Source: Escherichia coli
GTDB lineage: Bacteria; Pseudomonadota; Gammaproteobacteria; Enterobacterales; Enterobacteriaceae
Assembly (NCBI RefSeq): GCF_003334335.1
Contig: NZ_QOWQ01000021.1
Length of the DNA: 64,000 nucleotides
Strand: one strand, 5' to 3'
Part shown: piece after piece, positions 33,789-58,796 of the stretch
How the letters are laid out: each line of letters opens with the position of its first letter
How positions within the stretch are numbered: the first letter of the stretch is position 1
Notes under the pieces: generated by a model
What the model saw: only the letters and a program-made list of their open reading frames with translations
The model's database searches: none
What the model was told of the DNA's origin: nothing
Translations under genes and position numbers: made by a program

Positions 33789-34454
33789 TTAATGCAGGCA
33801 GCACTGCTTAAATTTCTTACCACTACCGCACGGGCAAGGATCGTTACGCCCCGGTTTCTCTTCTGCTTTGATCGGTTGCTGAACAGCTTTTTCCTGCGGA
33901 TGCGCCATCCAGTACGCATGTAGATCAAGCGCCGCCAGTCGAATGGCATCTACGCTCTCTTCAAACGCTTCTGGCGACATTTTCTCTACCCGCTCGAAGT
34001 TTTCCTCAGTACCGTGCAGCGCAATCGCCTCCAGCGCTGGTTTTAACGAATCGGGCAACGTTGACCAGTCAGAAAGTGCCACGCCCCGCATATAGCCAAA
34101 GCACCACTCCTCAACAATCGTCAGCTCGCTGCCATCAACTTCTCGCAAGCCGAATAACGGCTCAAACTGCTCCGGGAATTCGTTCAGACGCTCTGCGGTA
34201 TCGGCCATATGTTGAAAAGCCAGATTCATAAAGCGCGTCATCTCTTTCTCTGACGCCCAGCGCGGCACATAGTCAGCCCCACCCCACACGGCAACCAGCC
34301 ACTGTTCCGGTTCAATCTCTTGCGGAGAACTCAACACCGCCGTCAATAAACCGTCCAGCTCCGCCACATCAAGGATGGCGTGGTCAGTGTTGTATTTGGT
34401 CAGAATATCGTCCAGCCATTCCAACTCACTTTCGTTTAACGGTCCCGTTTTCAT
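33789..34454 (-). CDS. yecA: YecA, UPF0149 protein with C-terminal SEC-C zinc motif
   Basis: 221 aa ORF ending ...[19 protein letters not shown] (SEC-C motif). Confidence 0.92.
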
Positions 34455-34649
34455 ACGCTTTTCCTTGTGGATCTCAACTCGCCAGCACCTATCTTACATG
34501 CCGGTCCGTATCAGAGATACTTTTTGAGTGGCTTTGCTGGTGATTAAAAATTAGGGAGGGTGTAACGACAAGTTGCAGGCACAAAAAAACCACCCGAAGG
34601 TGGTTTCACGACACTGCTTATTGCTTTGATTTTATTCTTATCTTTCCCA

Positions 34650-34704
34650 TGGTACCCGGAGCGGGACTTGAACCCGCACAGCGCGAACGCCGAGGGATTT
34701 TAAA
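34650..34704 (-). tRNA. leuZ: truncated tRNA-Leu (leuZ-type, anticodon UAA), 3-prime ~55 nt only; prophage attachment-site remnant
   Basis: tggtacccggagcgggacttgaacccgcacagcgcgaacgccgagggattttaaa is the reverse complement of the tRNA-Leu 3-prime end through the anticodon loop; identity stops there and the D-arm/acceptor 5-prime half is absent. Not an intact tRNA. Confidence 0.8.
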
Positions 34705-34810
34705 AACTATCAACCACCATTTATAAATCATAACGTTATGATTTTATTAAGTATACAGATAAAGCAATATGGCGCTATTTGATGCTTTTGTTACTTTTCA
34801 TCGCCACTTT

Positions 34811-35812
34811 TTACCCTCTATTGTCAAAGGGATTCAGTTCAACAGCAGCCTCTAAATGACCCGGCGCAAAGTGTGCATAACGCATAGTCATTTTTATATC
34901 GCTATGCCCCAGTATTTTTTGCAACACAAGAATATTTCCTCCCCGCATCATAAAATGGCTGGCAAACGTATGACGTAGCACATGAGTTAATTGTCCGTCA
35001 GGAAGTTCGATCTTTGCTCTCTTAATAGCGGCGTCAAAAGCCTCATAACATGGTGAAAAAAGCGCCCCGCGTTTTTTAGGAAGCATGGCCTGCAATTGAG
35101 GTGAAATAGGTACAGTGCGGTTCTTCTTTCCTTTGGTTTTAACAAATGTGATTCGTCCAGGCAGTATTTGAGATTGCTTTAATCCCTCTGCTTCACTCCA
35201 CCTGGCACCAGTCGCAAGCCCAATACGGACGACAACACCCAAATCTTTATTCCGTGACTCATCACATGCAATCAGAAGGCGTTCAATCTCATCTGCATAC
35301 AGAAACGCCTGTTCCTTTTCTTCCTCACGAAACTTGCGAATACCTGTCAATGGATTTTCACCAGACCACTCCCCAAGGCGCTTCAGTTCAGCAAAAACAG
35401 CATGTAAATATGACTGTTCGCGATTAACGGTTGCTTCACTAAGTTTTTTCTTCCCCTTTGGATTCCATTCACCTGATAACCGCCGCTCCCTGTAGATGGC
35501 AAACATATTTTTATCAAATTGAGAAGCAAACGGATCACCCAACCTAGAACAAATCGCCTCAAGTTTAGCCTTGCGCTCTTCACCGGAAGACAACGTTTTA
35601 CCGTACATTTCAAACCAGCGAGCAACCAACTCGGAAAGACGGGGGCCAGAACCATCCTGAAACTCGCCCCCTAAATTACCGTTCATTAAACGGCGCTCAT
35701 AAGAGAGCGCCTCACCTTTAGTAGCAAACTGCTTACGAATGCGTTTTCCTGCTGCTCCGTAGGGATAGCATTCACAGAGCCATTTACCAGTAGATAGTTT
35801 ACGAACAGACAT
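34811..35812 (-). CDS. int: P2-type tyrosine integrase
   Basis: Track ORF 34811..35887; start MSVRKLSTGKW aligns with the P2 Int N-terminus; catalytic R...HxxR...Y motifs (ATGARWSEA, HVLRHTFASH, MRYAHFAP). Confidence 0.9.
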   Translation of the reverse strand: MSVRKLSTGKWLCECYPYGAAGKRIRKQFATKGEALSYERRLMNGNLGGEFQDGSGPRLSELVARWFEMYGKTLSSGEERKAKLEAICSRLGDPFASQFDKNMFAIYRERRLSGEWNPKGKKKLSEATVNREQSYLHAVFAELKRLGEWSGENPLTGIRKFREEEKEQAFLYADEIERLLIACDESRNKDLGVVVRIGLATGARWSEAEGLKQSQILPGRITFVKTKGKKNRTVPISPQLQAMLPKKRGALFSPCYEAFDAAIKRAKIELPDGQLTHVLRHTFASHFMMRGGNILVLQKILGHSDIKMTMRYAHFAPGHLEAAVELNPFDNRG

Positions 35813-35846
35813 ATTAAAAAGTGCACACCAAGGAAAATTTTCGTGA

Positions 35847-36104
35847 TTAAGATGGTTGCTCAACCCGCATAAAGAGCTTTTCATCAACTAACTGCTCCCA
35901 TTCATCGGGATCAAGCTCCCAAGAAGGAGCCGACATATCATCCTCATCCCCCTCATTTACAAAAGTAACCAAATAGAAAGGAAGATCTCCGGGCTCATCG
36001 TCATCGTCCTTGACAATATGAACATTAGTAACAACTATACGATTAGATGGATTAACTTTAGATACATATAAACCAATTAATGGAATTTGCGGATTAGTTA
36101 CCAT
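35847..36104 (-). CDS. hypothetical highly acidic 85 aa protein (cargo between repressor and integrase)
   Basis: ATG with upstream agagg SD; product has runs of D/E (VKDDDDEPGDLPFYLVTFVNEGDEDDMSAPSWELDPDEWEQLVDE); no family recognised. Confidence 0.6.
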   Translation of the reverse strand: MVTNPQIPLIGLYVSKVNPSNRIVVTNVHIVKDDDDEPGDLPFYLVTFVNEGDEDDMSAPSWELDPDEWEQLVDEKLFMRVEQPS

Positions 36105-36302
36105 AATTCATTTACCTCTTTGGACTTCCTCATGAACAAAGACTTACTTTTCTTTAAGACCATAACAAGTAATTCACACCATTTCTTACATCACTAGTTG
36201 CCCCCTCCCACCTTTGTCAGCTCGCTTAATTTATCTTTTTCATTTCTTTTAAAGTCGGTAAAGCAAGCTTTTGTCACAATATCTTTCTCCAACAACTATC
36301 TA

Positions 36303-36947
36303 TCAGAAAAGAACACTGCCTAATAAAACACCAACAACGAAACACATTCCTGTTTCTTTCGGGTATTTTCTAATTATTTGCTGAAAATTCATCTGTAATT
36401 GACTACCGGCAGAATTGTTGGCAGTTAATTTCTTTTCTCCTTCCACTGATTGTTGGTCTAACCAGGAAAGAGCCATCTGAAGCTGAGAACGAGTAAGATC
36501 GTTTAAGCGACCCGTTCCGAAATTGATATGGCAATAGCGGATAAGTTTTTGACGAAGCACTCCATCTTCACTATTACGAAGTAAAATACTTACAAGCGCC
36601 TTACGCGCATCATGATCTTTACATCGTTCAAGCATCGCACACAGAAAGCTCTCTGCGGTCTTATATTGATTCATTGTTATATCATCAATACTGTCTACAC
36701 CAATCTCTGCATGCAATTTTTGCCAAATAATAAACGCCTCGGTATTGCTGGCATCTACAATAGCAGCAACTAATCTATTTAATGCCTTCCGTTGCCCCTT
36801 AAGTAAGGGGCGTGGATCACTGTTATTGCTCGAAGGAATTGCGATATTGACGGTATGAGAGCCATCATATCGCCCTATCTGAATATTCTTTTCTTGGTAA
36901 TCTCGCCCAGCAATACGATTATCTGAACCGTTTGAGTTGACCGTCAT
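36303..36947 (-). CDS. hypothetical 214 aa protein with C-terminal hydrophobic anchor (cargo between repressor and integrase)
   Basis: Long ORF with good SD (ggaggtgg before ATG), C-terminal TM-like tail MCFVVGVLLGSVLF; N-terminus shares NRIAGRDY motif with the upstream repressor C-terminus. Confidence 0.7.
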   Translation of the reverse strand: MTVNSNGSDNRIAGRDYQEKNIQIGRYDGSHTVNIAIPSSNNSDPRPLLKGQRKALNRLVAAIVDASNTEAFIIWQKLHAEIGVDSIDDITMNQYKTAESFLCAMLERCKDHDARKALVSILLRNSEDGVLRQKLIRYCHINFGTGRLNDLTRSQLQMALSWLDQQSVEGEKKLTANNSAGSQLQMNFQQIIRKYPKETGMCFVVGVLLGSVLF

Positions 36948-36962
36948 GCCACCTCCTTGCTA

Positions 36963-37367
36963 TCACTTACCCTTTGTTTCGTTATAGTCACGGCCTGCGA
37001 TGCGGTTATTCCCGCCAGAGATATTTAACCCTCCCCCTGATGACTGACTCTCCTTTTCAGTGACTGCACCTTTCAAAGCACCAATCACCGCGTTTTTCAC
37101 ATCTAGTGAGGCACTCCGAAAACGTGTGATCAACTCCTGCTCATCATCGTTATAAGTTTCAGGTGAATGAATTCCCAACACGACATACTGAACATCAAGG
37201 CCAAAACGCGACAACGCTGATAAGTACGCCGCATCAGGAAAGCTATCCCCTTTCTCATATCTAAGTTGGGTTAACTTTTTAACCCCACCAATATCACTCA
37301 TAGCGACTTGGCTAAGACCCAGCCGTTCCCTTTCCTCACGCAACCGTTGGCCAATATCATTTTTCAT
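36963..37367 (-). CDS. XRE-family HTH repressor (immunity repressor, P2 C / CI equivalent)
   Basis: 134 aa; N-terminal HTH_XRE (IGQRLREERERLGLSQVAMSDIGGVKKLTQLRYEKG); leftward, divergent from the cox-like gene as in P2 immunity regions. Confidence 0.8.
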   Translation of the reverse strand: MKNDIGQRLREERERLGLSQVAMSDIGGVKKLTQLRYEKGDSFPDAAYLSALSRFGLDVQYVVLGIHSPETYNDDEQELITRFRSASLDVKNAVIGALKGAVTEKESQSSGGGLNISGGNNRIAGRDYNETKGK

Positions 37368-37376
37368 ACAAAAACC

Positions 37377-37405
37377 TTGACAGGTATCTTTTTTGATACC
37401 AAAAT
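37377..37405 (+). promoter_or_regulatory. candidate early promoter with embedded operator palindrome GGTATC-N6-GATACC
   Basis: TTGACA -35 hexamer, 17 bp spacer containing the perfect inverted repeat ggtatcttttttgatacc, then caaaat; lies between divergent repressor and cox-like genes. Confidence 0.5.
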
Positions 37406-37442
37406 ACTTTCATGAGCCATTAGATGAACACAATATACCACT

Positions 37443-37661
37443 ATGAAACAAGTTGTTCACGACACCAGATCACGGATTCCGCGTAACACAGCTACAGGAC
37501 CGCGACTGGCACTTCGATTGTCAGCAGAAGAGCGAGCCGTCATTGATGAAATGGCAACTAAAGAACAGCGCTCATCCTCTAACATGGCACGCATGATCTT
37601 CCTTCGTGGCCTTGAGATTATCCAGAAAGAGCAAAACCAATCTTCATGCTCAGGAGGTTAA
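37443..37661 (+). CDS. ribbon-helix-helix DNA-binding protein (Cox/Cro/Apl-equivalent first early gene)
   Basis: 72 aa; RLALRLSAEERAVIDEMATKEQRSSSNMARMIFLRGLE fits a strand-helix-helix pattern; first rightward gene after the repressor. Confidence 0.6.
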   Translation: MKQVVHDTRSRIPRNTATGPRLALRLSAEERAVIDEMATKEQRSSSNMARMIFLRGLEIIQKEQNQSSCSGG

Positions 37662-37665
37662 CGGG

Positions 37666-37869
37666 ATGCAAGGTATAACAATAAACATCAACGTTAATGC
37701 CCCTTACGTATCTCTGAAGAAATACGCCGAGATAACAGGCATTCCTCTTAACACATGCAAAAAGATGTTGGCTGACGGTCGAATTATTATCCGCCCCAAA
37801 CGCGCCAAAATGGAAAAACCAGAAGTAAACCTTATAGCTATGTTAAAAGACGCAATAGCCAACAGCTAA
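37666..37869 (+). CDS. small HTH regulatory protein (AlpA/excisionase-like fold, tentative)
   Basis: Internal Met of track ORF 37606..37869; YVSLKKYAEITGIPLNTCKKMLADGRI looks like a short HTH. Confidence 0.5.
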   Translation: MQGITININVNAPYVSLKKYAEITGIPLNTCKKMLADGRIIIRPKRAKMEKPEVNLIAMLKDAIANS

Positions 37870-37936
37870 ACAATGAAGCGAGCATAACTATGAAGAAAAC
37901 GTTTCATTAAAAACATCAAGATTTGAAGGTGTTGAC

Positions 37937-38131
37937 ATGACTGACTCCACTCAAACAAAAGACTTATACAGCGATTTACGATTCATCATCATACAACAGC
38001 AATCAGGCAGACTGGATCCAACACGTGCAAGCAAGGCCTGGAAAGAAGCACTTACCGATCAGGGGATCGATGTAATTAGCGAAGTCATGGCTGAAGTGAT
38101 TTTTAAGCTAACAAGAGACGAATCACTGTAA
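37937..38131 (+). CDS. hypothetical protein, 64 aa
   Basis: Track ORF in the early operon; no family recognised. Confidence 0.45.
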   Translation: MTDSTQTKDLYSDLRFIIIQQQSGRLDPTRASKAWKEALTDQGIDVISEVMAEVIFKLTRDESL

Positions 38132-38156
38132 TCATCGCATAAGGACCGAGTGAAGA

Positions 38157-38480
38157 ATGAAGCAACAACGAAATGCACGCATCAATAACAACACCGAACG
38201 CCACGTTGCACGCCAGCACTTCCGTAAAAATAGTGCGACCGCAACCACTGAAATCCATACCACACCAGACGGTCATCAGATAAAACAAACCGGAAAGCAC
38301 ACCTGGGCGATTGGCGACACTGGCATCGTTATTCACAAAAGTTTTCGTAGCCCTGTTACTGGCAGAATTAATTTTACCCTGACTCGCGGAGATGATTACT
38401 TCGGACAGGACTTCACATTTTTTGAAGCCTTAAGAACGGTCGATCGGTTAATGACTGGTCGTAATTTTCACGCTAAATGA
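38157..38480 (+). CDS. hypothetical basic protein, 107 aa
   Basis: Track ORF, co-directional and tightly packed in the early operon. Confidence 0.5.
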   Translation: MKQQRNARINNNTERHVARQHFRKNSATATTEIHTTPDGHQIKQTGKHTWAIGDTGIVIHKSFRSPVTGRINFTLTRGDDYFGQDFTFFEALRTVDRLMTGRNFHAK

Positions 38481-38493
38481 TACAGATGAAAAC

Positions 38494-38709
38494 ATGGAAA
38501 CATACAAAATTAAAGATATTGAACACCATGACGGTTTTTTCAGCGCTGAACATGTTGCTTGTGTTGTCAGGATTTTCAATGAAGTAGATGTGATTTTGAA
38601 GCAAAACATAAAGCTTGAAATCATCGCAAAAAGCGAAGCAGACGCCATTGAAATAAAAAAAGCTATTGAACGTCAGATAATACAGTTGACAAGTACCATT
38701 GTATTTTAA
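38494..38709 (+). CDS. hypothetical protein, 71 aa
   Basis: Track ORF, early operon. Confidence 0.45.
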   Translation: METYKIKDIEHHDGFFSAEHVACVVRIFNEVDVILKQNIKLEIIAKSEADAIEIKKAIERQIIQLTSTIVF

Positions 38710-38727
38710 GCAACAGGAAAAATAACC

Positions 38728-38967
38728 ATGACCAGAAATTACAAAGAAATCGTCAATCAGATCATTAAGGCTTACAGCCACCGCATTGCAAAATTACCCG
38801 AGTTCATACGCATAATGGAGACGCATTCATTAATGCAAGGACTGAACGGGTTGGCACTGGCCGCATTGGCAGCTAACGATATTGATGCCACCATCGAAAT
38901 AAACAACCTGTTATTAGACATTGAAAAAGGCGGAAACATAGAACCCTACAATCTGGAGGCCGCATGA
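38728..38967 (+). CDS. hypothetical protein, 79 aa
   Basis: Track ORF, early operon; stop overlaps the next small ORF (ATGA). Confidence 0.5.
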   Translation: MTRNYKEIVNQIIKAYSHRIAKLPEFIRIMETHSLMQGLNGLALAALAANDIDATIEINNLLLDIEKGGNIEPYNLEAA

Positions 38968-39089
38968 GCGTATTTCTTTCATGGCTAATTCTGATTATCT
39001 CCGTACTTATGGCAATCGGCATTATGCGAATTATCCACACACTGAAGGATATCGAATTATTCTTTACCGGCGATAAACGCCGTAAATAA
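38964..39089 (+). CDS. small hydrophobic peptide, 41 aa (single TM)
   Basis: ATG preceded by ggagg SD; MSVFLSWLILIISVLMAIGIMRIIHTLKDIELFFTGDKRRK; below ORF-track cutoff, found by manual translation. Confidence 0.5.
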   Translation: MSVFLSWLILIISVLMAIGIMRIIHTLKDIELFFTGDKRRK

Positions 39090-39101
39090 AGCGAAAACGT
39101 T

Positions 39102-39197
39102 ATGAAGAATGTAAAAGCAATACTCACCATTGCCAGTGTGTGGCTGATATTTCAGGTGTGTGCGCTTATCTGGTTAGCCCTGAAGATCTGGGAATAA
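39102..39197 (+). CDS. small hydrophobic peptide, 31 aa (single TM)
   Basis: MKNVKAILTIASVWLIFQVCALIWLALKIWE; weak SD; found by manual translation. Confidence 0.35.
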   Translation: MKNVKAILTIASVWLIFQVCALIWLALKIWE

Positions 39198-39302
39198 CCT
39201 TAAGCTTCAAATAAGAACGCAATAACACCAGAAAACATACGAACAATTAATTAAGGCATTCATGCCATCGGGTTCCCTTTGTCTTTTTTCAGGAGTCAAC
39301 AA

Positions 39303-39527
39303 ATGAGAACAGTCGAATCACCCGCAACCGCCAGACCAGTTAACCATCATGCACATATCAGCATGGCCGCGAGAAAAGCCGAGCGTGCGCATATCTGCGA
39401 ATTGCTCCGAGACCTGGTTAACACGGCGAAAGAGAAGCACTCCTCCCCGCTGGAAACCTGTTCAGCCATTGAACGACTGATTGCAACGCTCACGAACAAC
39501 ACCGAACTGAAGGGGTCAGCGCAATGA
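39303..39527 (+). CDS. hypothetical protein, 74 aa
   Basis: Internal ATG of track ORF 39279..39527 preceded by aggag; stop overlaps the exonuclease start. Confidence 0.5.
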   Translation: MRTVESPATARPVNHHAHISMAARKAERAHICELLRDLVNTAKEKHSSPLETCSAIERLIATLTNNTELKGSAQ

Positions 39528-40105
39528 ACCATCTCATGATTGACACCGAAACACTGGGTAACGGACCGGACGCAGCCATATTCGCGATCGGGGCGGTGTT
39601 TTTCGACCCGTTCACCGGAAAGCTGGGCAAGCAGTTTGAGAAATTCATCGACCCGGTAGATTCAGAACGCAACGGCGGAACCGTCAATGCAGCCACCGCT
39701 GTATGGTGGGCCGGACAATCCGTGGAGGCCAGATCCTGCCTGCGCAACGCAGAGGGAACAGAGCTTGCGGCAGTAACCGAATTTCTGGCGTTCATTTCAC
39801 GCAATATGCATGACGAAAGCACGGGCAATTCACTGACCATATGGTGTAAGGGCGCATCCTTCGATTTCCCGATCCTGAAATCCGCCATAACACGCACAGC
39901 CGGAGAAAAAAGCATCCCCTGGTGCTACTGGAACGAGCGCTGTATGCGCCCGCTTATCGCCATGGCTGAATCAACTGGATGGAAAATGCCAGGCAGATCA
40001 GGAAAAGAGGCCATTGCTCACACCGCGCTGGGCGACGCCATTTACCAGGCAAAGGTCGTGTCAGAAATCTGGCAGCGCTTCACAACACCATTCCTGAACA
40101 TATGA
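39524..40105 (+). CDS. DnaQ-like 3-prime-5-prime exonuclease (DEDDh family)
   Basis: 193 aa; Exo I motif MIDTETLG and Exo III motif HTALGDA. Confidence 0.75.
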   Translation: MNHLMIDTETLGNGPDAAIFAIGAVFFDPFTGKLGKQFEKFIDPVDSERNGGTVNAATAVWWAGQSVEARSCLRNAEGTELAAVTEFLAFISRNMHDESTGNSLTIWCKGASFDFPILKSAITRTAGEKSIPWCYWNERCMRPLIAMAESTGWKMPGRSGKEAIAHTALGDAIYQAKVVSEIWQRFTTPFLNI

Positions 40106-40338
40106 GGTGAAGCCATGGTCGCCATCCTGAATGTGTGTTGCTGCCCCCCCCTGAACGTGGAAAGAAAAGCCCGCGCATCGCTGCGTTTATTCCGCGACGG
40201 CGTGCGGAATTTTTCACGCATAAAACCCCACGACTACCTGGTAATAAGAATCGGTTTCCGCTGGCGATTACTGAGCAAAAACAACGGGGCGTCATGGGAT
40301 TTATTAACGCACGAAACCTATAACAAAGAGGCCGCGTT

Positions 40339-41319
40339 ATGAGCAAAGAACTGTTATCCGGTACGCCACTGAAATGGGTGGGCGGAAAAAGCCGCATCAT
40401 GAACACACTGAAGGCGCACCTGCCAGAAGCCGACTGTCTGGTTGAGCCGTTCGTGGGCGGCGCATCGGTATTCATGAACACCAGTTACAAGCGTTACATC
40501 CTGGGTGATTCCAATGGTGCGCTGATTAATTTCTACCGGCAAGCTAGGGACAACACCGACAGCCTGATCGACGAGGCGAAAACCCTGTTCCTGAACCACA
40601 ACAACAGGGGTGACTATCTCATCATTCGCGAAACCTTTAACGCAGAGAATCATGCCTTCCTGAACAGCAGAACGGGAATAAGCGACCGCCGTGAACTGCG
40701 ACTGGCCGCCATGTTTTTGTACCTGAACCGACACAGCTTTAACGGTTTGTTCCGCGTGAACGGAAAAGGCGATTTTAACGTGCCTTTCGGCTGCTACCGC
40801 AAGCCCTACTTCCCTGAGCGTGAAATCCGCGCATTTGCAGACAAGGCAAACAGCACCCGAACGCTGCTTATCCACGCAGATTTTAAGGATACGCTGAACT
40901 CTGCCAGTCACCTGTTCGGCATGGGCAACACGCTTTGCGTGTACTGCGATCCCCCTTACCTGCAATTCAGTGGCCGGGACAATTTTACCGCCTACGGAAA
41001 ACCATTCGATGAAGACGAGCACGTTCGTCTGAGGGCAGCGCTTGACCGCCTTTCACAGGAAACGGGCGGCATGACCAGCATCACCATCTCCAATTCCGAC
41101 ACACCGGAAACACGACGCATTTATCGGGGTTACCGGATGAACTGCATACAGGCACCACGAAGCGTTGGCGCAAGAACCCGGGAATCAGCACCGGAGGTTA
41201 TCGCCACCCTGAGACAGTGCGACGCCTGCGGTCACCATGGCGGTGGCTACTGCCCGGACTGCGGACCTGTAACGGGAGATGCAACTTACAGCGTGATGTT
41301 TACCCCTGCCAGTACGTGA
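40339..41319 (+). CDS. Dam-family DNA N6-adenine methyltransferase with C-terminal Cys-rich extension
   Basis: 326 aa; FxGxG SAM motif (VEPFVGGASVF) and catalytic DPPY; C-terminus CDACGHHGGGYCPDCGP looks like a zinc ribbon. Confidence 0.85.
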   Translation: MSKELLSGTPLKWVGGKSRIMNTLKAHLPEADCLVEPFVGGASVFMNTSYKRYILGDSNGALINFYRQARDNTDSLIDEAKTLFLNHNNRGDYLIIRETFNAENHAFLNSRTGISDRRELRLAAMFLYLNRHSFNGLFRVNGKGDFNVPFGCYRKPYFPEREIRAFADKANSTRTLLIHADFKDTLNSASHLFGMGNTLCVYCDPPYLQFSGRDNFTAYGKPFDEDEHVRLRAALDRLSQETGGMTSITISNSDTPETRRIYRGYRMNCIQAPRSVGARTRESAPEVIATLRQCDACGHHGGGYCPDCGPVTGDATYSVMFTPAST

Positions 41320-41354
41320 ATAAACAGATGAATCAGTAACACCGGAGTCAGGAA

Positions 41355-41591
41355 ATGAATAGCGAAAACAACAAAGAGCTTTTGCGGGAATTGCGTCTCA
41401 TCGCCCGTGCACATGAGGAAGCAGCAAAAGTTATCGCTGCTGCTGGAAGACCAGAGCTCGTTATCGCTTCAGCAATCTCACTGAGGATCACCATGGAAGC
41501 AATCCGGGTGATTCAGGATCAGGAAAGTGAAATCGCCACCCTTAAAAAGCAGCTCAACGAGAAATCTGCCGGGCAAAGGAGTCAGCAATGA
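41355..41591 (+). CDS. hypothetical protein, 78 aa
   Basis: Track ORF; predicted helical; early operon. Confidence 0.45.
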   Translation: MNSENNKELLRELRLIARAHEEAAKVIAAAGRPELVIASAISLRITMEAIRVIQDQESEIATLKKQLNEKSAGQRSQQ

Positions 41592-41806
41592 TCCAGGAAT
41601 CAACCGTTATCCGGTTCACAGCCAACGGCCGTCAGTACGAGGTAGACGAAGCCCTGATTGATTACAGCATGACCCGCCAGAGCTCACGCTTTCAGGACAT
41701 GTACCACATCCGGCTAATCAACGGTTCGTCTTTCAACGCCACAAACGTGGAAGAAGTACGCGTGCTGACAGCAACACGCAACACGGGAGGTAAAGCGTGG
41801 CAGTGA
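41588..41806 (+). CDS. hypothetical protein, 72 aa
   Basis: Track ORF overlapping neighbours by a few nt, indicating translational coupling. Confidence 0.45.
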   Translation: MIQESTVIRFTANGRQYEVDEALIDYSMTRQSSRFQDMYHIRLINGSSFNATNVEEVRVLTATRNTGGKAWQ

Positions 41807-42147
41807 TTTATATCGCCGGCCCCATGACCGGATACGAAGACTGCAATAGAACGGCGTTTTGCCTGGAGGATCTGAAGCTTCGGTGCGCCGGAAACATCGT
41901 TCTTAATCCTGCCGTACTGCCTGACGGATTAAGCCAGCAGCAGTACATGAGTATTTGTATTCCGATGCTCATGTGTGCCGATGCCATTTACTTACTGGAT
42001 GGATGGGAAGAATCCGCTGGCGCACGGGCTGAGTACGCAATGGCGCTCAAACTGAACATGCCAGTGTCATTCCCGGAAAACCGGGCAGCCGTCGAAACCG
42101 TCGCGCAGCTGCTTCACAAATCAAAAGCCACACAGGCGACTGAGTAA
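41797..42147 (+). CDS. DUF4406 / nucleoside 2-deoxyribosyltransferase-like protein
   Basis: 116 aa; VIYIAGPMTG ... LLDGWEESAGARAEYAMALKLNMPV resembles the small Rossmann-like DUF4406 family common in prophages. Confidence 0.6.
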   Translation: MAVIYIAGPMTGYEDCNRTAFCLEDLKLRCAGNIVLNPAVLPDGLSQQQYMSICIPMLMCADAIYLLDGWEESAGARAEYAMALKLNMPVSFPENRAAVETVAQLLHKSKATQATE

Positions 42148-42585
42148 CCGACCGGAGATCGAAACATGATTGCGCGAAGAGCTGCCAACCGCCTCACAGG
42201 CTTTATTCCAGGCAAGGTTGATCATGCACTCCATCACGGCGCTGTCACTTTCCTCAACAAAGGAGAGGCGCGCAATCATGCATTCTGGGGTGAGCACGTG
42301 GCGCTGGCTAATCAGTCTTTGATAGCTAAGCGCCTGCCATTCAGCCTTTTCAGCTCTGATAGAAAGAGAGGCAGCCATGACCTGCCACACCAGAAAGAGC
42401 ACCACACTGGCGAAAACAAACGTTGCGCTGTCGCAAAAAATGAATGCGGCAACAATCGCAAGGAAAGCGCTAATCCTCAGAACCAAGGAAGCGCGACGGT
42501 GGAGAAGGCTTGTCATGTGTTCAAGCCAGTAGCTGTACCACAGGTCAAAAAGAATTTCGTAATCAGAAGGGAGCTTATCACTCAT
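42121..42585 (-). CDS. hypothetical membrane protein (about 154 aa, 2 TM) encoded antisense to the early operon
   Basis: Track ORF 42121..42768; first ATG at 42585 gives MSDKLPSDYEILFDLWYSYWLEHM... with two hydrophobic helices; its 3-prime end overlaps the DUF4406 gene convergently by about 27 nt. Confidence 0.55.
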   Translation of the reverse strand: MSDKLPSDYEILFDLWYSYWLEHMTSLLHRRASLVLRISAFLAIVAAFIFCDSATFVFASVVLFLVWQVMAASLSIRAEKAEWQALSYQRLISQRHVLTPECMIARLSFVEESDSAVMECMINLAWNKACEAVGSSSRNHVSISGRLLSRLCGF

Positions 42586-42765
42586 CAGAAACACCCCGCG
42601 TATGCAGACAATCACCAGTTGCCAGGTGATATTAATTCGCAACATTCTAACCACATCAGCACGCAACACAAAAACCGCTTGCCAGCGCTCGTCGTGTCGG
42701 GTTACATTTCCGCTGCACCTCATAAAACGGGTGCCGGGATTTCCACCCCGCTGACAAACGAAGCG

Positions 42766-42790
42766 CACAGCCGCGCCAGCGGTTTTTTTG
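42766..42790 (+). terminator. terminator-like hairpin plus T-run in non-coding gap
   Basis: ccgc-gcca-gcgg followed by ttttttt. Confidence 0.35.
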
Positions 42791-43258
42791 TGCGTACTGT
42801 ATCGCCACGTCTTTTTCGCGTCAGAATTATGGCGGGGCGTACAGGGCCGACTTCGGTCGGGCCGGTTTCTTCGTTTGCCGGTTGTGGAAACCCTGTACGT
42901 CTCGCCACCCTGAGTTTTCCACCTCTGGTTGGTGAGTTTTCAAAATTCACAAACGAAGAGGCCACACCATGGCAAACCGCAAGCAACAGCGCGCCCGCGC
43001 TGAGCGTCTTCACATCCACAGCGAAATCAACCGCAGACTTTTCCGCGCAACACGCGTCGCGCAAATCATGCATATCAACATGCTGCATGAGCGCACGCAC
43101 GCACTATCAAACCGTTACTGCGCTGCCGTCTTCAGCTATCTGGCCGAAGACCTGGCAGAACTGCAAAGCCTCATCAACCAGCACCGATAAACCACATCCG
43201 GAAGCTATCCCACACCTGCACGCGGGAGGCTTCCGCACATCTGTTACCGGAGGTTCTC

Positions 43259-43675
43259 ATGAAGAGCGTTAAGGGACTTTCAGATATTCAGGACTTTTTT
43301 AACTGGATGTGGGCGGAGGATCCCCTGCTGGCTTCCCGCCTGAACGACTGGCACGACTGTTACCGTCGCGCCTGTAAACAGGCTGCCCGCAGCGTCACCA
43401 CATACGGGGATTTCTCCTTCACCGTTGACGATCGTTACCGCGTGGACGTGAAAGGTGATGGTGATGGCTTTGGTTTATTTCACATCAACGGCATCGACAG
43501 CACCACCATCAGCTGGTCGTCATCAGAGATGGCGCTTGTGCTGGAGATGACAAACCACAGCGTGGCCGTGAAAGGTATATACACCGCAGAAGACTTTATC
43601 GGTGAATACCAGCGCCTTCTCATGCTGTACCGCGCGGCGTTTCAGGCGGCAACTGCCGGGGAGTGCGACGCATGA
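43259..43675 (+). CDS. hypothetical protein, 138 aa (upstream of A; B/orf-equivalent position)
   Basis: Track ORF; stop overlaps the start of gene A (ATGA). Confidence 0.55.
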   Translation: MKSVKGLSDIQDFFNWMWAEDPLLASRLNDWHDCYRRACKQAARSVTTYGDFSFTVDDRYRVDVKGDGDGFGLFHINGIDSTTISWSSSEMALVLEMTNHSVAVKGIYTAEDFIGEYQRLLMLYRAAFQAATAGECDA

Positions 43676-46185
43676 GCGACCATAACGCACAACTGGCGTA
43701 CCCGTGGAACGCCCCGCTGCAAGTTATCGATCCTGAAACGTTCGGCAGAGCGCAACCAACCGCATTACGCCAGGTCATTCAGAGCTACATCAACGAAGAC
43801 ATTCGCATTGATGCCAGACTAGATGAAGAAACCGTCGCCTTCCTGACAAACACAGACGAAGGCAAGCGAATTAATTTGCATCTTCACCGCGACGAAGAGC
43901 GTCGGATCAGACTGGAAAAAGTGGTGCGGCGCAAACGCGAATATCCGCCCACGCTGGTATCGAAAGCCATGGCAGAACTTCGCGCCCTGCCCTCGTTTCT
44001 TGGTAACGCGCTCATTCGTGATCTGGCGCGTTTAAACCGCAAACAGCAAAGCGCCCGCCATGAAGGCGTGAAAAACAACAATACACACGTGGCTGATAAC
44101 TTTGTTCGCCGTGGACTGCGCACACGCCTGAAACGCATCGAACAGGTGAATGAACGCTTCGCCACGACAGCATTCAAAGCCACCGCAGCGCGTCATCGCC
44201 TTGATGAATTACTCATGCTGCCACAACTCAACCGTGATCAAATTCAGCGCCTTGCCACACTAACGGCGGCGGCATTTTCCACCGAACTGGAACGCATATG
44301 TGATGAAGTTACTGAGCGGACAGGAAAAGGTGACGATAACCTGTTCACCTGGTTGCTGACTTACCAGCAGCTGGCGCGCATGGCGTTAAAACTGGGCGTG
44401 ACCCCACCATACTGGCCGTCACTCGAGATCAGACGTGACCGCCGCACGGCACCAGACCCTGAACTGGTACCGGGTGCGGTAATGCGTATCACCTGCGCCA
44501 CCTGGTGGAACAACCAGCTGCGCCACCTCGCAGATCTCTGGCGGGAGGAATTACTGCGTGCCGCCGGAAGAGTATCGCGCAAGGCATCCCCCTACATCAG
44601 TCATGAGTCACTCCAGGAATTCCGGGAGAAACGCCAGCGCACCCGTGATTTTCTCAAAAGCTGGGACATTGAAAACGAAGACGGTGAACGCCTGAGTCTG
44701 GAGGACGTGTACTGGTCAGGGCTGGGGAATCCGCGCAACCGCCGCAACGAGATGATGGCCTGCGTCAGAGGGATGGAACAGGTCGCCGAATCGCGTGGTG
44801 ACTCCGCGTTCTTCGTGACAGTAACCTGCCCTTCCCGCTTTCACAGCGTGAACGAGGACGGCAGCCTGAACCCGAAATACAACGGTGCCACCGTGCGCGA
44901 TGCCAGTGATTATCTGGTTTACGACGTCTTTGCAGCTGCAAGAAAAAAACTCAACAAAGAAGGCCTGAGCTGGTACGGGGTGCGCACCGTTGAGCCACAC
45001 CATGACGGCACACCACACTGGCACATGCTAGTATTCACTTCCCCGGACAATGAAGAACGCATCATTGAAATCATGCGTGACGCAGCAATCAAATCAGATC
45101 GCGCAGAACTGGGGAATGATATTTCTCCGCGCTTCAAGTGCGAAAAAATCGACCCGGCAAAAGGCACACCGGCAAGCTACATCGCAACCTATATCGGCAA
45201 GAACCTGGACACCAGCACCTTCCATAACAATGACCCGAAAACCGGCAAACCTTACGCCGATAAAGAATCGGGAAAAACCATGGCGGAAACCGTGGAAAAC
45301 GCCATTGCCTGGGCGAGTCTCCATCGCATCCGTCAGTTCCAGTTCTTCGGAATCCCGCCCCGCCAGGTATGGCGTGAACTCCGCCGCCTTGCCGGACAGA
45401 TGGAGCGCAACCCCGCATCACCGAAGCGCCTGGACCATGACGACATTGACGCCATTCTGGCCGCCGCTGACGTGGGGTGTTTTGCCACCTACATCAACCG
45501 TCAGGGCGGCGTGCTCATTCCACGCAACCTGTACCTGATCCGCACCGCATACGAAACCGCAGATGAGGCCAATGATTACGGGGAATTTCCTCAACGTATC
45601 TGGGGAATATGCGCCCCGTCGCTCGGCGAGCGCTACACCATCTGTACCCATCCGGACGAATGGAAACTGGTCAGAAAAGAAGCGAAAACCGACAACAGCA
45701 CGGACGAGGATTTTGACGTTGGGGGCGGCTTCGCCGCACCTTGGACTCGTGGCAATAACTGTCCCCATGATGAAAAAACAGACACCGGAGAGGGTAAAAC
45801 CCCACCACCGGAAACCAGGAAAGAACAAAAACTGGTCGTCCCGGGAGGTGATTTGGGTGAGTGGTTAAGGTCACTGACCCCCACAGAGCGAAAACAACTC
45901 ACCAGGCAGCTGAAAGATGCGCCATCTGACACAAAAACCGTGAAAACCGGCGGCCCCACCACGCCCGATGACGTCATACATGTGCGTACAGCATTGCCGC
46001 TGACTGACGTCACCACCACCGTAATCAAGTCGGCACTGAGCGCGACGGGCGAGGAGCTACACAGTGGCGCAGCACTTTCCGTACACAGAGGTGCACGCGT
46101 TCGCCTGCCTGACGGGCGGATTGTGCACTGGGATGAGAAATCACGAAGCCTGGTGGCAGCAGATCAACCGGAGGTGAACCCATGA
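43672..46185 (+). CDS. A: rolling-circle replication initiator endonuclease (P2 gpA family)
   Basis: Track ORF 43663..46185; HUH-type motif HWHMLVF and twin-tyrosine motif ASYIATYIGKN as in P2 A. Confidence 0.88.
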   Translation: MSDHNAQLAYPWNAPLQVIDPETFGRAQPTALRQVIQSYINEDIRIDARLDEETVAFLTNTDEGKRINLHLHRDEERRIRLEKVVRRKREYPPTLVSKAMAELRALPSFLGNALIRDLARLNRKQQSARHEGVKNNNTHVADNFVRRGLRTRLKRIEQVNERFATTAFKATAARHRLDELLMLPQLNRDQIQRLATLTAAAFSTELERICDEVTERTGKGDDNLFTWLLTYQQLARMALKLGVTPPYWPSLEIRRDRRTAPDPELVPGAVMRITCATWWNNQLRHLADLWREELLRAAGRVSRKASPYISHESLQEFREKRQRTRDFLKSWDIENEDGERLSLEDVYWSGLGNPRNRRNEMMACVRGMEQVAESRGDSAFFVTVTCPSRFHSVNEDGSLNPKYNGATVRDASDYLVYDVFAAARKKLNKEGLSWYGVRTVEPHHDGTPHWHMLVFTSPDNEERIIEIMRDAAIKSDRAELGNDISPRFKCEKIDPAKGTPASYIATYIGKNLDTSTFHNNDPKTGKPYADKESGKTMAETVENAIAWASLHRIRQFQFFGIPPRQVWRELRRLAGQMERNPASPKRLDHDDIDAILAAADVGCFATYINRQGGVLIPRNLYLIRTAYETADEANDYGEFPQRIWGICAPSLGERYTICTHPDEWKLVRKEAKTDNSTDEDFDVGGGFAAPWTRGNNCPHDEKTDTGEGKTPPPETRKEQKLVVPGGDLGEWLRSLTPTERKQLTRQLKDAPSDTKTVKTGGPTTPDDVIHVRTALPLTDVTTTVIKSALSATGEELHSGAALSVHRGARVRLPDGRIVHWDEKSRSLVAADQPEVNP

Positions 46186-46586
46186 CACGATTCCATTGTG
46201 TACTCCAGCGCCATGATTTCAGCGCCATCATGAGTGGACGCATTCCGGCACTGACGCTGAGCGGCGTCAGTGTTCGACCACAGCCAGGCGACGAACTGGA
46301 GATCACGATCGCAAACCCCGATCGCAGCACAGATACCGTCATGACCGACATCCTGACTGCAAGAATCAACACCGACAGAAGCGCATTCATCGTTGCCGTG
46401 CGCCCTCGTCGCGCCATATCAGAGCCTGAACCACTGACTCCCGTAGGAAAAATCATGCAGGCATACCACGAAAAACAGACCAGAAAACTCAACGAAGAAC
46501 TGGCAAGAACGCTGGCCGTCGTTAACCGAAAAGCGGCAATTGTCCGCTATGTGCATTCGGCCGCCAGCAGGCAATCACACAGGTAA
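46182..46586 (+). CDS. hypothetical protein, 134 aa (first gene after A)
   Basis: Track ORF; ATGA overlap with the stop of A. Confidence 0.5.
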   Translation: MTRFHCVLQRHDFSAIMSGRIPALTLSGVSVRPQPGDELEITIANPDRSTDTVMTDILTARINTDRSAFIVAVRPRRAISEPEPLTPVGKIMQAYHEKQTRKLNEELARTLAVVNRKAAIVRYVHSAASRQSHR

Positions 46587-46595
46587 CAAAAGACC

Positions 46596-46805
46596 ATGAA
46601 CATGACCAGAAACAGCAAACCGAAGGAGCACACCATGAACGACATCAGGAGGATCAGCGACAAAGAGCTTACGAAAATGATTGAGTCGGCGCAGCAGCTG
46701 CTTTCACGACGAAATCCGGTTGTGGAAGAAACATGGTGGGAAAATTTACTGGCAGCACTGACCGAACTCCGCGAACGCCGGAACAACGAAGGAGCCGCCA
46801 AATGA
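46596..46805 (+). CDS. hypothetical protein, 69 aa
   Basis: Track ORF; stop overlaps the next start. Confidence 0.45.
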   Translation: MNMTRNSKPKEHTMNDIRRISDKELTKMIESAQQLLSRRNPVVEETWWENLLAALTELRERRNNEGAAK

Positions 46806-47140
46806 AGACACCCAGAATGACCGGAAAGGTAATCATTTTACGCTACCTGGAAACGCACGCACGCTTCAGCACACCAGAGCTGGTTGAAAAACTGGGCGTG
46901 AAAAGGACCATCATTAATCAGGCCGCCGGAAAGATGGTACGCGAAGGGCTGCTGGTTGTGGACGGGTACACGGACAAGATAACGCATTACCGGAAGCCAA
47001 CGGAAAAGGAACGACTGGAGCTGGAGCGGCGGGCTGAACAGCAACAAAAGCCGTCCGTAATCCAGGACTGCAAGCGAAGCGAAATCATGAAGCGAATTCT
47101 GTTTATCTACGGCGCTGGCGAAGAGCTGCCAGTCATCTAA
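46802..47140 (+). CDS. winged-helix DNA-binding protein (about 112 aa)
   Basis: Internal ATG of track ORF 46733..47140 overlapping the previous stop; ILRYLETHARFSTPELVEKLGVKRTIINQAAGKMVREGLLVVDG resembles a MarR/winged-helix fold. Confidence 0.55.
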   Translation: MKTPRMTGKVIILRYLETHARFSTPELVEKLGVKRTIINQAAGKMVREGLLVVDGYTDKITHYRKPTEKERLELERRAEQQQKPSVIQDCKRSEIMKRILFIYGAGEELPVI

Positions 47141-47172
47141 CCCCAACAATAAAACCAACACGGGAGACAAAT

Positions 47173-47490
47173 ATGCCAACACAGGTTGCAACAGAGGGAC
47201 GACTGGCAGCAGACCCGAACACAAGGAGAACAACCAAAGGAACCAACGTCACAACGGCACAACTGGCGGTATCACTACCCTGCCATGGAGCAGAACAGCC
47301 AACCACAATGTGGCTTTACTTTATTGCATTCGGGAAGCAGCACGAAGAACTGGCAAAACACAGAAAAGGCGATCTGATTCTGGTGCACGGAAACTTGCAG
47401 GTAAACAGGTATCAGGACAAGTACGGGCAACAGAAAGAGAGCTGGCAGTTGCTGGCGCAAAGCATTATCAGCTCAAGAACCGGGCGATGA
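47173..47490 (+). CDS. SSB-like OB-fold protein lacking the acidic C-terminal tail
   Basis: 105 aa; pattern G-L-DP--R-T--G-----LA ... W--V--FGK-AE ... KG--V-V-G-L---RY-D--G mirrors the SSB N-terminal OB domain; no DDDIPF-type tail. Confidence 0.6.
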   Translation: MPTQVATEGRLAADPNTRRTTKGTNVTTAQLAVSLPCHGAEQPTTMWLYFIAFGKQHEELAKHRKGDLILVHGNLQVNRYQDKYGQQKESWQLLAQSIISSRTGR

Positions 47491-47508
47491 CTTCTCGCAT
47501 GTTACCCT

Positions 47509-47552
47509 CAGCAGCGAGGGTAACACAGGATTTCTTTTTTCAGTCAAACCGA
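47509..47552 (+). terminator. rho-independent terminator ending the rightward A operon
   Basis: Perfect inverted repeat gttaccctc agcagc gagggtaac followed by a T-rich run (tttcttttttc). Confidence 0.75.
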
Positions 47553-48268
47553 AATCGGCCGCTTGTCGCGTATGCATAGGTGACCACCGCACCCAGCGCA
47601 TTCACACGCTTCTTCACATAAATCACATTACCATCCTGATAGTCACCGTATGGGTAGCAAATAAATATTGTTTTTTGCAAATCAGGATCATCAACAAATG
47701 CCCCTGAACAACTTTTTGAGCTACCGCGACTGTACTCATAGGGAGCGGAATAGAATGAATCTTCACCCGGAAGAAAATATATCAGCGTAACCAGGAGGGT
47801 AAACAGAATCATCCAGGTAAGAAGGCACATACCCGAAAAAAACTTAAGATACGATGTAACCCCGGTAAATTTAGACCGATCAACCAGGTTCTTTTTCAAC
47901 AGGCACAGTGAGGCAAAAACCGAAAGCACCACAGACACTGAAACAAGGCAGTTTGTCGTGAACGAATAAAGGTAGGTAATTCTGTAAACATCGTTTCGCC
48001 ACCAAATAAAAAGAAAAATCCCCCCCAAAACAGAAAGCGTGACAAAAGTTAAATAAGGATATGAGTAATTTTTCACAGTTCTCACCCGGCAGTCTCCCAC
48101 TGATTCAGACAGATGAATATCATCACCACCTGCCACAAAAAATCGCAAGATCAAAACTGCACAAAAGCGCACGAAATTGCACAATTTTTCTAATGTACTT
48201 TTTCCCCATTCCGCCCGGTAACGGCGCTGGCTGAGGCCGGTTTGCACGGTGCACGAAAAACGAGGCAA
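47540..48268 (-). CDS. hypothetical multi-pass membrane protein in the A-Q cargo hotspot (start uncertain; likely GTG near 48076, about 178 aa)
   Basis: Track ORF with three hydrophobic helices and about 75 aa C-terminal soluble domain; body looks markedly AT-rich by eye; candidate GTG start preceded by ggtgag SD. Confidence 0.6.
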   Translation of the reverse strand: MPRFSCTVQTGLSQRRYRAEWGKSTLEKLCNFVRFCAVLILRFFVAGGDDIHLSESVGDCRVRTVKNYSYPYLTFVTLSVLGGIFLFIWWRNDVYRITYLYSFTTNCLVSVSVVLSVFASLCLLKKNLVDRSKFTGVTSYLKFFSGMCLLTWMILFTLLVTLIYFLPGEDSFYSAPYEYSRGSSKSCSGAFVDDPDLQKTIFICYPYGDYQDGNVIYVKKRVNALGAVVTYAYATSGRFRFD

Positions 48269-48269
48269 T

Positions 48270-48310
48270 TGCAGCGCGCAGGCGACGAGGGAAGGGCGCC
48301 CGAATTGAGG
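48270..48310. other. candidate cos (cohesive end) region
   Basis: GC-rich tract gcgcaggcgacgagggaagggcgcc between hotspot and portal, where P2-type cos lies; about 13 of 19 positions match my recollection of the P2 cohesive end GGCGAGGCGGGGAAAGCAC. Confidence 0.3.
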
Positions 48311-48630
48311 GGTGGAAGGCAGGTTGCTTTATTTGGGGTCGTATTGCGCGTGATACGCACGCAGTGAAGCCGGTTCTGAAAAAACCACACCGAAACAGAG
48401 TCAGAAAAACAGGCCGCCAGAATGCGTCTGGTTGAGTTTTACGGGGTCGGGATTAAATGCGGAAACATCACACCGCAGGCATGACGCGAAAAAGAGAAAA
48501 ACCACAGCAAAACATAATGTTAAATGTTATTGATGAGTTGAGAAGCGAAAGGTGTATTGCGTTGACAGAGCTGGAGAGTCGGGGCATAAATTTTTTATGC
48601 CCCGGCGAAGCAGCCGACAAGCGAAGCGCG

Positions 48631-49674: not shown

Positions 49675-49679
49675 TGTGT

Positions 49680-51458: not shown

Positions 51459-51480
51459 TCATCCAGGTATCCGGTGCCAT

Positions 51481-51498
51481 TGTCGCCACGCTCTTACA
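51481..51498 (+). promoter_or_regulatory. candidate Ogr/Delta-type late-promoter activator site (TGT-N12-ACA)
   Basis: tgt cgccacgctctt aca about 75-90 nt upstream of the O start codon in the divergent P/O intergenic region. Confidence 0.45.
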
Positions 51499-51570
51499 AC
51501 ATCGCCGCCTTGAGGCGCAGCCATCCCCTTATCATCATGAAGAAAAGCAACCCACAGAAAGGGGATTTAC

Positions 51571-52407: not shown

Positions 52408-52422
52408 CTGAGGAACAAAATC

Positions 52423-53517: not shown

Positions 53518-53566
53518 CGCATCATGGCGGGCACATGCGCCCGCCGGTTAATCAGGAGTCGAATAC

Positions 53567-54376: not shown

Positions 54377-54484
54377 TAACACCGGACCCGACCTCGTCGG
54401 CAGGCGGCGCGACCGGTGATCTGATCGCTGACTCCCGGTCATTTTCACCGGTCGCCCACCGCCTGATCTACAGGAGAAGACATC

Positions 54485-54979: not shown

Positions 54980-55179
54980 TGAAGGTAACCGCGCATGACG
55001 GCGACACCGTTGACTTACTCTGCCAGCGTCATTACGGCATGACAAAGGGCGTGACAGAGCGCGTTCTGGCTGCCAATCCGGGGCTGAGTAACACGGTATT
55101 CCTCACTGCCGGGCAGGAAGTTGAATTACCGGAAATCACACAGGAAAAACAGCGCGAAACCGTTCAGTTGTGGGATTGA
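54979..55179 (+). CDS. X: tail protein X (P2 gpX family)
   Basis: 66 aa MKVTAHDGDTVDLLCQRHYGMTKGVTERVLAANPGL...; start overlaps the L stop (TAATG). Confidence 0.7.
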   Translation: MKVTAHDGDTVDLLCQRHYGMTKGVTERVLAANPGLSNTVFLTAGQEVELPEITQEKQRETVQLWD

Positions 55180-55181
55180 TT

Positions 55182-56541: not shown

Positions 56542-56544
56542 ACG

Positions 56545-58744: not shown

Positions 58745-58796
58745 CAACAGGCACAGCGCATCAGAACGGCACCACTGTCCACAGCAAAAGAAACAA

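Follow-up and report, generated by a model that had tools for sequence, protein, structure and literature searches.

A leuZ fragment next to an integrase gene in Escherichia coli: probable integrase-proximal junction of an HP1/186-type P2-family prophage

Results

Genes and features at the leuZ locus

We analysed a stretch of Escherichia coli DNA of 64,000 nucleotides (contig NZ_QOWQ01000021.1 of assembly GCF_003334335.1), which is called the window in the following, and the features that were identified around its leuZ junction are collected in Table 1. On the minus strand, nucleotides 33-87 of leuZ, the gene of tRNA-Leu(UAA), were found between yecA and the gene of a tyrosine integrase, and this fragment (TTTAAAATCCCTCGGCGTTCGCGCTGTGCGGGTTCAAGTCCCGCTCCGGGTACCA) agreed with the K-12 gene at 55 of 55 positions. 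It begins where the anticodon loop does and ends with CCA, whereas the 5′ 32 nt of leuZ were not found in the 64-kb window, even when up to 3 mismatches were allowed. The integrase reading frame ends 106 nt from the fragment. These data are in line with an initial annotation of this DNA, according to which only the 3′ 55 nt of the tRNA gene are present and the integrase gene lies about 100 nt away. The fragment occurs once in the window and chance similarity was ruled out, since the match is complete and none of 100 shuffled sequences contained it. ARAGORN detected no tRNA gene in the whole 64 kb and the Rfam tRNA model scored 15.8 bits at the fragment, which is below the gathering threshold of 29 bits. 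Judged from its sequence, the fragment does not encode a functional tRNA.

On the integrase side, identity to the K-12 chromosome ends exactly at position 34704 and the integrase region adjoins, as expected for the proposed prophage/chromosome junction inside leuZ. The same annotation had described identity to the 3′ portion of leuZ that then switches to phage DNA. This description applies at position 34704, but in the opposite direction the identity to the leuZ locus passes the tRNA's 3′ end (34650) and extends leftwards as normal chromosome. The arrangement of yecA, leuZ fragment and integrase gene was present in 492 of 5426 complete E. coli genomes, and the practical value of the present data is that they define precise boundaries for a common E. 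coli prophage.

Table 1. Features of the leuZ junction and of the adjoining prophage, with positions in the window
Feature	Position	Strand	Basis
yecA, 221 aa, bacterial-side flanking chromosomal gene	33789..34454	-	100% to K-12 YecA (tblastn); annotated as yecA in EC2 and K-12
Integrase-proximal copy of the 124-bp direct repeat (att identity block), apparently the displaced host copy	34581..34704	-	identical to EC2 intact-side copy and K-12 attB
3′ETS-leuZ copy (orphan), 67 nt, downstream of int	34583..34649	-	67/67 to K-12 b4759
3′ETS-leuZ terminator hairpin AAACCACC/GGTGGTTT, then T-run	34587..34606	-	inverted repeat I3
AAGCAGTGTCGTG (AAGCAGUGUCGUG), complement of RyhB (around nt 35-46) and of the 5′ end of RybB	34607..34619	-	duplex prediction with K-12 RyhB and RybB
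leuZ 3′ 55 nt: anticodon loop, 3′ anticodon-stem strand, variable arm, T-arm, 3′ acceptor strand, CCA	34650..34704	-	K-12 match
TTTAAAATCCCTCG, 14-nt invariant segment, probable core/strand-exchange region (anticodon loop and 3′ stem strand)	34691..34704	-	16-allele att alignment
Phage arm between int and core (P arm)	34705..34810	-	K-12 identity ends at 34704; elements positionally conserved in relatives
Perfect 20-bp palindrome AAATCATAACGTTATGATTT	34725..34744	.	inverted repeat I2
Inverted second copy of the arm site, ATGGCGCTAT	34769-34778	+	found de novo
AAGTGGCGATG, probable arm-type integrase binding site	34799..34809	-	found de novo; matches the 186-type consensus of PMC3448106
HP1-type tyrosine integrase, 333 aa	34811..35812	-	Pfam Int_N and Phage_integrase; PHROG 1
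CI-type repressor, head of the leftward operon (predicted)	36963..37367	-	PHROG repressor families; transcriptional regulator in EC2
P2-family (Peduoviridae) prophage, 29.3 kb of about 38 kb	34705..64000	.	collinear EC2 prophage and EC2 annotation; remainder beyond the window

Extent of the repeat and the att core

When the K-12 attB, the intact leuZ side of EC2 and the window were aligned, 124 bp were identical in all three sequences and divergence was seen on both sides. This block consists of the 55 nt of leuZ, the 67 nt of 3′ETS-leuZ and 2 more bases; starting in the anticodon loop, it passes the CCA and continues for a further 69 nt up to ...GGTGGTTTTTTTGT. In the initial annotation the att core had been put at roughly 55 bp, but the repeat common to both prophage ends measures 124 bp and the probable core 14 nt. 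The former estimate covers less than half of the real duplication and misses a second functional element, and the first reading has to be corrected in this point: the length of the repeat is not readable from the tRNA alone. Direct repeats of this size should be long enough for RecA-dependent deletion or gene conversion.

Comparison of 16 att alleles, HP1 included, indicated that TTTAAAATCCCTCG is the sole stretch that is invariant in all of them, and the functional core is probably this 14-nt segment at the anticodon loop. Identity of attP with attB starts at the first base of the 7-nt anticodon loop TTTAAAA. The same left boundary was observed in the integrase-side copies of all HP1-type integrase relatives, as in the window, and it was conserved among relatives of 69 to 100% identity. 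In the attP sites of HP1, mEp390, Fostie and ZF40 it lies one base further 5′. Over all alleles the start of identity varies by a single base, despite the fact that two unrelated integrase families sit on opposite sides of the block. As to the sample, most IMG/VR contigs with integrase relatives are prophage calls that were trimmed 3 bases after the integrase gene, and about 11 of them reach the att region. Three of these contigs (L040, L041, L045) resemble genuine attP sites in that arm-like repeats are seen on either side, but the downstream genes of L045 constitute a lysis cassette.

The second functional element of the repeat

In the K-12 annotation, the 67 nt that directly follow leuZ are listed as the small regulatory RNA 3′ETS-leuZ (b4759). 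Set free from the glyW-cysT-leuZ transcript by RNase E, this RNA functions as a sponge of RyhB and RybB and binds Hfq via ARN repeats (bioRxiv 10.1101/2021.04.25.441314). The window copy is identical to b4759 over its full length, with the RyhB/RybB segment, the A-rich Hfq-binding region and the terminator. In contrast to the K-12 gene, it is located behind a truncated tRNA and an integrase gene and not behind the glyW-cysT-leuZ operon, and therefore we consider it a sequence copy and not an established member of this RNA class by biogenesis. An Rfam scan returned no family that covers the 3′ETS, and sub-threshold matches concerned terminator-like parts only. When RNAduplex was applied to full-length RNAs, inflated whole-molecule duplexes were obtained, and only the 12-13-nt core complementarity to RyhB and RybB was used.

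The pairing segment was unchanged in all E. coli-type phage alleles, although the flanking positions vary. The phage 3′ETS alleles show differences in the A-rich Hfq-binding region, in the terminator loop and in the U-tail. In 7 alleles, A-T has become G-C in the terminator stem by compensatory changes that maintain it, and pairing of the tRNA T-stem is likewise preserved by double changes in phage alleles. Such stem-preserving double changes are to be expected if the copy supplied by the phage must work.

With a 69-nt query, 7,098 copies were counted over 5,425 E. coli genomes, which corresponds to about 1,670 extra copies, and therefore duplication at leuZ, by HP1-type and by other elements, is common. 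In PEC399 (NZ_CM168011.1 1967384-1967450) and in four other complete genomes, the best 3′ETS-leuZ copy was only 90-95% identical to K-12; here a phage allele may have taken the place of that of the host, for instance after prophage loss via the repeats.

Integrase, repressor operon and phage arms

The integrase contains the catalytic residues of its family, namely R (ATGARWSE), HxxR (HVLRHT) as well as H and Y (GHSDIKMTMRY). Its closest relative of solved structure is the catalytic domain of the HP1 integrase (1AIH, E=2.8e-74). Identity to the HP1/HP2 Int amounts to 59% over the full length (residues 1-331), and HP1, HP2 and S2 are the nearest relatives among isolated phages. The CI-type repressor, a 214-aa reading frame, an 85-aa reading frame and int appear to form a leftward operon that points at the att site, and a promoter-like site was located at 37459-37432 (minus strand). 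The two reading frames between repressor and int are at a typical cargo position. The 85-aa frame (35847-36104, minus strand) belongs to PHROG 17127 of unknown function and the 214-aa frame (36303-36947, minus strand) to PHROG 5825 with a weak Flk-like match; PADLOC and NCBIfam returned no function for either of them.

A promoter/terminator scan reported no terminator-like site between int and the identity block, and this result carries little weight since the same scan missed the known 3′ETS terminator. The latter failure is likely due to greedy extension of the stem into the T-run. Transcripts leaving int probably end at the 3′ETS-leuZ terminator, both in the prophage and in attP. RNA folding of the int 3′ region (z = -1.6) was uninformative.

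Two kinds of elements were found in the phage arm. The palindrome is conserved as AATCATAA-N-TTATGAT in integrase relatives, and its resemblance to the IHF consensus suggests that it is possibly a binding site for IHF or another bending protein. The arm motif was detected before any comparison with the literature, and it corresponds to the reverse complement of the 186-type arm consensus tgccGCCActt that is given in PMC3448106. On the opposite arm, EC2 carries GTGGCGGT, GTGGCGAT and ATGGCGAT at 11-bp spacing, and we predict 186-type arm sites on both sides of the core. Among integrase relatives with identities as low as 69%, arm motif and palindrome are found at the same places. The most remote relatives have RTGGCAGCA as arm motif, and similar repeats are also present downstream of the block in L040.

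The far end as seen in EC2

EC2 was the best match of the window. The two sequences are collinear up to base 63999, with 98.7% identity over 40.7 kb and 99.2% over the last 10.6 kb. The order in EC2 is pgsA, glyW, cysT and intact leuZ, followed by hok, ogr, D, tail, baseplate, lysis and head genes, then by replication genes, CI-type repressor and int, and finally by the leuZ fragment and yecA. The two 124-bp copies of EC2 are 38,026 bp apart, and the intact leuZ lies at the ogr/hok end. Projected onto the window, its glyW-cysT-leuZ cluster would lie about 8.7 kb beyond the last base. The postulate that the intact tRNA gene is situated at the other prophage end, outside the window, is thus borne out in this near-identical relative, and its 99% identity makes the same reconstitution probable for the genome from which the window stems. 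Moreover, an intact copy is expected in this genome because leuZ is, to our knowledge, the only E. coli tRNA gene with an anticodon for UUA.

The part of the prophage that lies within the window comprises replication, portal, terminase, capsid, lysis and baseplate genes, while the tail sheath, D and ogr portion is located beyond its end. In the RefSeq annotation of EC2 the P2-type set includes portal Q, terminase P and M, scaffold O, capsid N, baseplate V/W/J/I, sheath and tube, D, ogr and the replication endonuclease A. Likeness to named phages was weak at the DNA level, with P88/Xuanwuvirus at 17% coverage and 74% identity. A record of phage 520873 contains indels and a split int and ends before leuZ, and for this reason it did not serve to map the crossover.

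Some further genes of the element were recorded. At its int-distal end, adjoining the intact leuZ and outside the window, EC2 carries a gene for a Hok/Gef-family toxin (positions 12135-12275 of record L002). The arm region on the hok side is variable, and the EC2 version is common to 10 genomes at >=80% of the query. In the window, a 656-aa protein (56545-58515, plus strand) is encoded between the lysis cassette and the tail genes; it is annotated as DUF6645 in EC2, falls into PHROG 143 of unknown function and had no PADLOC or NCBIfam match.

Origin of the two repeat copies

Since the two 124-bp copies of EC2 are identical, the crossover is not mappable in that phage, and RecA-dependent events between the repeats could be the cause of this identity. 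Therefore, we used lysogens with distinguishable copies, namely a degraded related element and an unrelated lambdoid phage.

In strain 149, the interval between leuZ and yecA is occupied by a degraded element (about 21 kb; NZ_CP028596.1 2195275-2216680) that has an integrase of the same family. IS30 and IS3 have inserted into this element, its tape-measure gene is frameshifted and its head genes are missing, but it retains int, both att copies and ParM-type partition genes. Its copy on the intact side shows two single-nucleotide differences from K-12 (3′ETS +9 A>C and T>C in the T-tail) with the arm repeats following next, whereas its int-side copy is identical to K-12. The same pattern as on the intact side of strain 149 was seen in a second strain. 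In principle, these differences could also be later mutations or results of gene conversion.

Strain 2017C-4173W12 has a lambdoid prophage at leuZ. Here, the intact leuZ exhibits the phage T-stem pair (C-G -> T-A, as in the attP sites of mEp390 and Fostie) together with phage-type 3′ETS changes, and the copy adjoining yecA is pure K-12. These polymorphisms place the crossover 5′ of 3′ETS +9 for the HP1-type family (strain 149) and 5′ of the T-stem for the lambdoid phage (2017C-4173W12). Taken together, the two lysogens indicate that a fragment such as that in the window represents the displaced host original and that the 3′ half of the intact gene is derived from the phage.

We infer that strand exchange takes place in or next to the anticodon loop, because the start of identity is conserved and the 14-nt TTTAAAATCCCTCG is invariant; the exact cleavage points would fall into this region. 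For HP1, strand exchange has reportedly been mapped by experiment to the anticodon stem-loop region, which agrees with this placement.

Discussion

Nature of the junction

The region 34581-34810 is very likely the integrase-proximal junction of an HP1/186-type P2-family prophage of about 38 kb that resides in the anticodon loop of leuZ. Such an element would have entered by site-specific integration into the leuZ tRNA-Leu(UAA) gene, catalysed by its tyrosine recombinase. The corresponding attP would consist, after int, of an arm in which 186-type Int arm sites accompany a palindrome that is probably a bending site, of a core starting at TTTAAAATCCCTCG, of an exact replacement for what lies 3′ of the crossover (the 3′ 48 nt of leuZ, the 67-nt 3′ETS-leuZ and its terminator) and of a further arm, where three arm sites are in phase. 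Recombination in the anticodon loop or close to it would join the 5′ part of the host leuZ to the 3′ part of the phage at the far end, so that the operon glyW-cysT-leuZ-3′ETS stays intact by virtue of the phage-borne 3′ part. The host 3′ part (55 nt of leuZ, 3′ETS-leuZ and terminator) would be left as an orphan beside int and yecA, and this is what the window would present. On this basis we expect, about 8.6-8.8 kb past base 64000, glyW, cysT, the 5′ 32 nt of leuZ, TTTAAAATCCC...TTTTTTTGT and an arm with RTGGCGNT repeats. As such, this is an ordinary att junction of a well-known kind, and the one new aspect is that an sRNA sponge is exchanged and its sequence doubled when a phage integrates at leuZ.

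Comparison with related integration systems

HP1 (Peduoviridae, Hpunavirus) integrates into a tRNA-Leu gene, as stated in PMC3448106. The parallels to the window concern several features: int is transcribed towards attP, TGGCGAT/TGGCGGT-type repeats are present in both attP arms, the core begins with ATTTAAAATCCCTCG in the anticodon loop of tRNA-Leu(UAA), and the phage brings along the rest of the tRNA and the next downstream gene, by which the operon is restored. Starting from int, the attP of HP1 consists of the repeats CTGGCGAT and CTGGCGGT, of ATTTAAAATCCCTCG with the 3′ rest of tRNA-Leu(UAA), of a complete tRNA-Lys and of the repeats CTGGCGAC and AGTGGCGGT. The identity block of HP1 reportedly measures 182 bp, versus 124 bp here. 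The window differs from HP1 in its host site (E. coli leuZ) and in its downstream cargo, which is 3′ETS-leuZ with its terminator instead of tRNA-Lys. Outside int, the phage of the window is distant from HP1 and shows the weak Xuanwuvirus/P88-like resemblance mentioned above.

For the wider group, Nilsson and Haggard-Ljungquist (2011, PMC3448106) place 186 in tRNA-Ile and PhiESP and PhiKPN in tRNA-Met. They also report that 186/HP1-type phages tend to tRNA genes and have long common cores with a variable reach beyond the tRNA (50 and 110 nt), and therefore the long repeat itself is a known feature of this group. With the 186-type phages described there, the prophage of the window shares the long tRNA-restoring attL/attR core, the tgccGCCActt arm sites and the CI-type repressor region. 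It differs from them in the target tRNA, and neither leuZ nor an sRNA in the common core is described in the accessible part of that paper. For O145:H28, leuZ has been named among the sites where integrative elements insert (PMC7067040), and within the literature searched we found no paper that links 3′ETS-leuZ with prophage att sites.

A second type of leuZ phage is represented by the lambdoid phages mEp390 and Fostie and by the Pectobacterium phage ZF40, the attP sites of which cover the same leuZ block through 3′ETS and terminator (about 120-130 bp, 80-89% identity). As with the HP1-type element, the phage copy replaces the 3′ half of the host leuZ in the lambdoid lysogen. In contrast, the integrase of these phages is only about 21% identical to that of the window, its gene lies on the opposite side of the block, convergent with leuZ and adjoining the intact tRNA in lysogens, and the TGGCG-type arm repeat is missing.

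Alternative explanations

The far end of the prophage lies outside the window and a degraded version of such an element does exist at leuZ (strain 149), so that one might regard the fragment as a relic of a degraded or rearranged prophage, the other end of which has no matching copy, with leuZ supplied elsewhere or lost. We consider this extremely improbable. The window is collinear to its last base with the complete 38-kb prophage of EC2, its int, replication, head, lysis and baseplate genes are intact, the single-copy status of the tRNA-Leu(UAA) gene calls for an intact copy, and even the degraded element of strain 149 retains both repeat copies and an intact leuZ.

A crossover far from the anticodon loop, for instance in the T-loop, at the tRNA's 3′ end or inside the 3′ETS, would imply that the window copy is partly phage-derived and that the boundary at 34704 is merely an end of homology. 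The identical copies of EC2 do not fix any position, the polymorphisms of strain 149 limit the crossover to the 63 nt upstream of 3′ETS +9, and Williams reportedly described in 2002 that T-loop and 3′-end sublocations are used by other integrase families. On the other hand, the left boundary is conserved among the integrase relatives, and the 14-nt anticodon-loop segment is the sole invariant stretch out to HP1, whose T-arm and acceptor differ. In addition, the polymorphisms of the lambdoid lysogen locate the crossover of that phage 5′ of the T-stem, and the reported mapping of HP1 strand exchange points in the same direction. Taking both sides into account, we judge a distant crossover to be improbable, and strand exchange at the anticodon loop is the reading adopted here.

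Possible consequences for sponge dose

In addition to the junction as interpreted above, and not as an alternative to it, the orphan leuZ′-3′ETS-leuZ might form the 3′ terminus of the repressor-int transcript, and its processing might yield the RyhB/RybB sponge a second time. If so, lysogeny would retune the thresholds of the sRNAs of iron and envelope-stress responses. The copy is complete and identical to the K-12 sRNA, including pairing segment and terminator, it lies on the same strand as int and 106 nt downstream of it with no terminator-like site called in between, and the extra copies across E. coli genomes as well as the constancy of the pairing segment in E. coli-type phage alleles with varying flanks would fit this idea. 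However, for its natural release the RNA has to be cut by RNase E out of a tRNA precursor, and the 5′ half of the tRNA is missing from the orphan. Moreover, transcription of the int operon is usually low in lysogens, a host origin not long ago or gene conversion from one 124-bp repeat to the other could account for the conservation of the pairing segment, and few independent alleles were sampled. All in all, we regard a second sponge dose from the orphan as conceivable but rather unlikely.

A more general proposal, which we put forward with similar reserve and as an unlikely possibility, is that at least two unrelated integrase lineages targeting leuZ carry their own 3′ETS-leuZ allele in attP, and that lysogeny swaps the allele of the operon and leaves the host allele at the 3′ end of the repressor-int operon, by which the sponge dose is changed. 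Should this apply, response thresholds of iron and envelope-stress sRNAs would be altered in many E. coli strains with an element at leuZ. Depending on the leuZ integrant, sponge allele and copy number may vary among strains employed for work on RyhB and RybB or among natural isolates.

Two observations concern the variety of elements at this site. In CP8-3_Sichuan (NZ_CP053736.1 around 2305171-2305324) the intact leuZ is followed by another 3′ETS-leuZ allele (GGGAAACATCAGAAT--AATC, loop TCCG) and then by an arm unlike that of the HP1-type or the mEp390-type, which indicates at least a third kind of element at leuZ. In a 79-kb contig (L028 4100-5340, IMGVR_UViG_2740892219_000010) two unrelated prophages are arranged in tandem at leuZ, with an HP1-type int, one copy of the 124-bp block and, directly thereafter and convergent, an integrase of the mEp390 type (348 aa), and it seems that another phage can integrate at either of the att copies.
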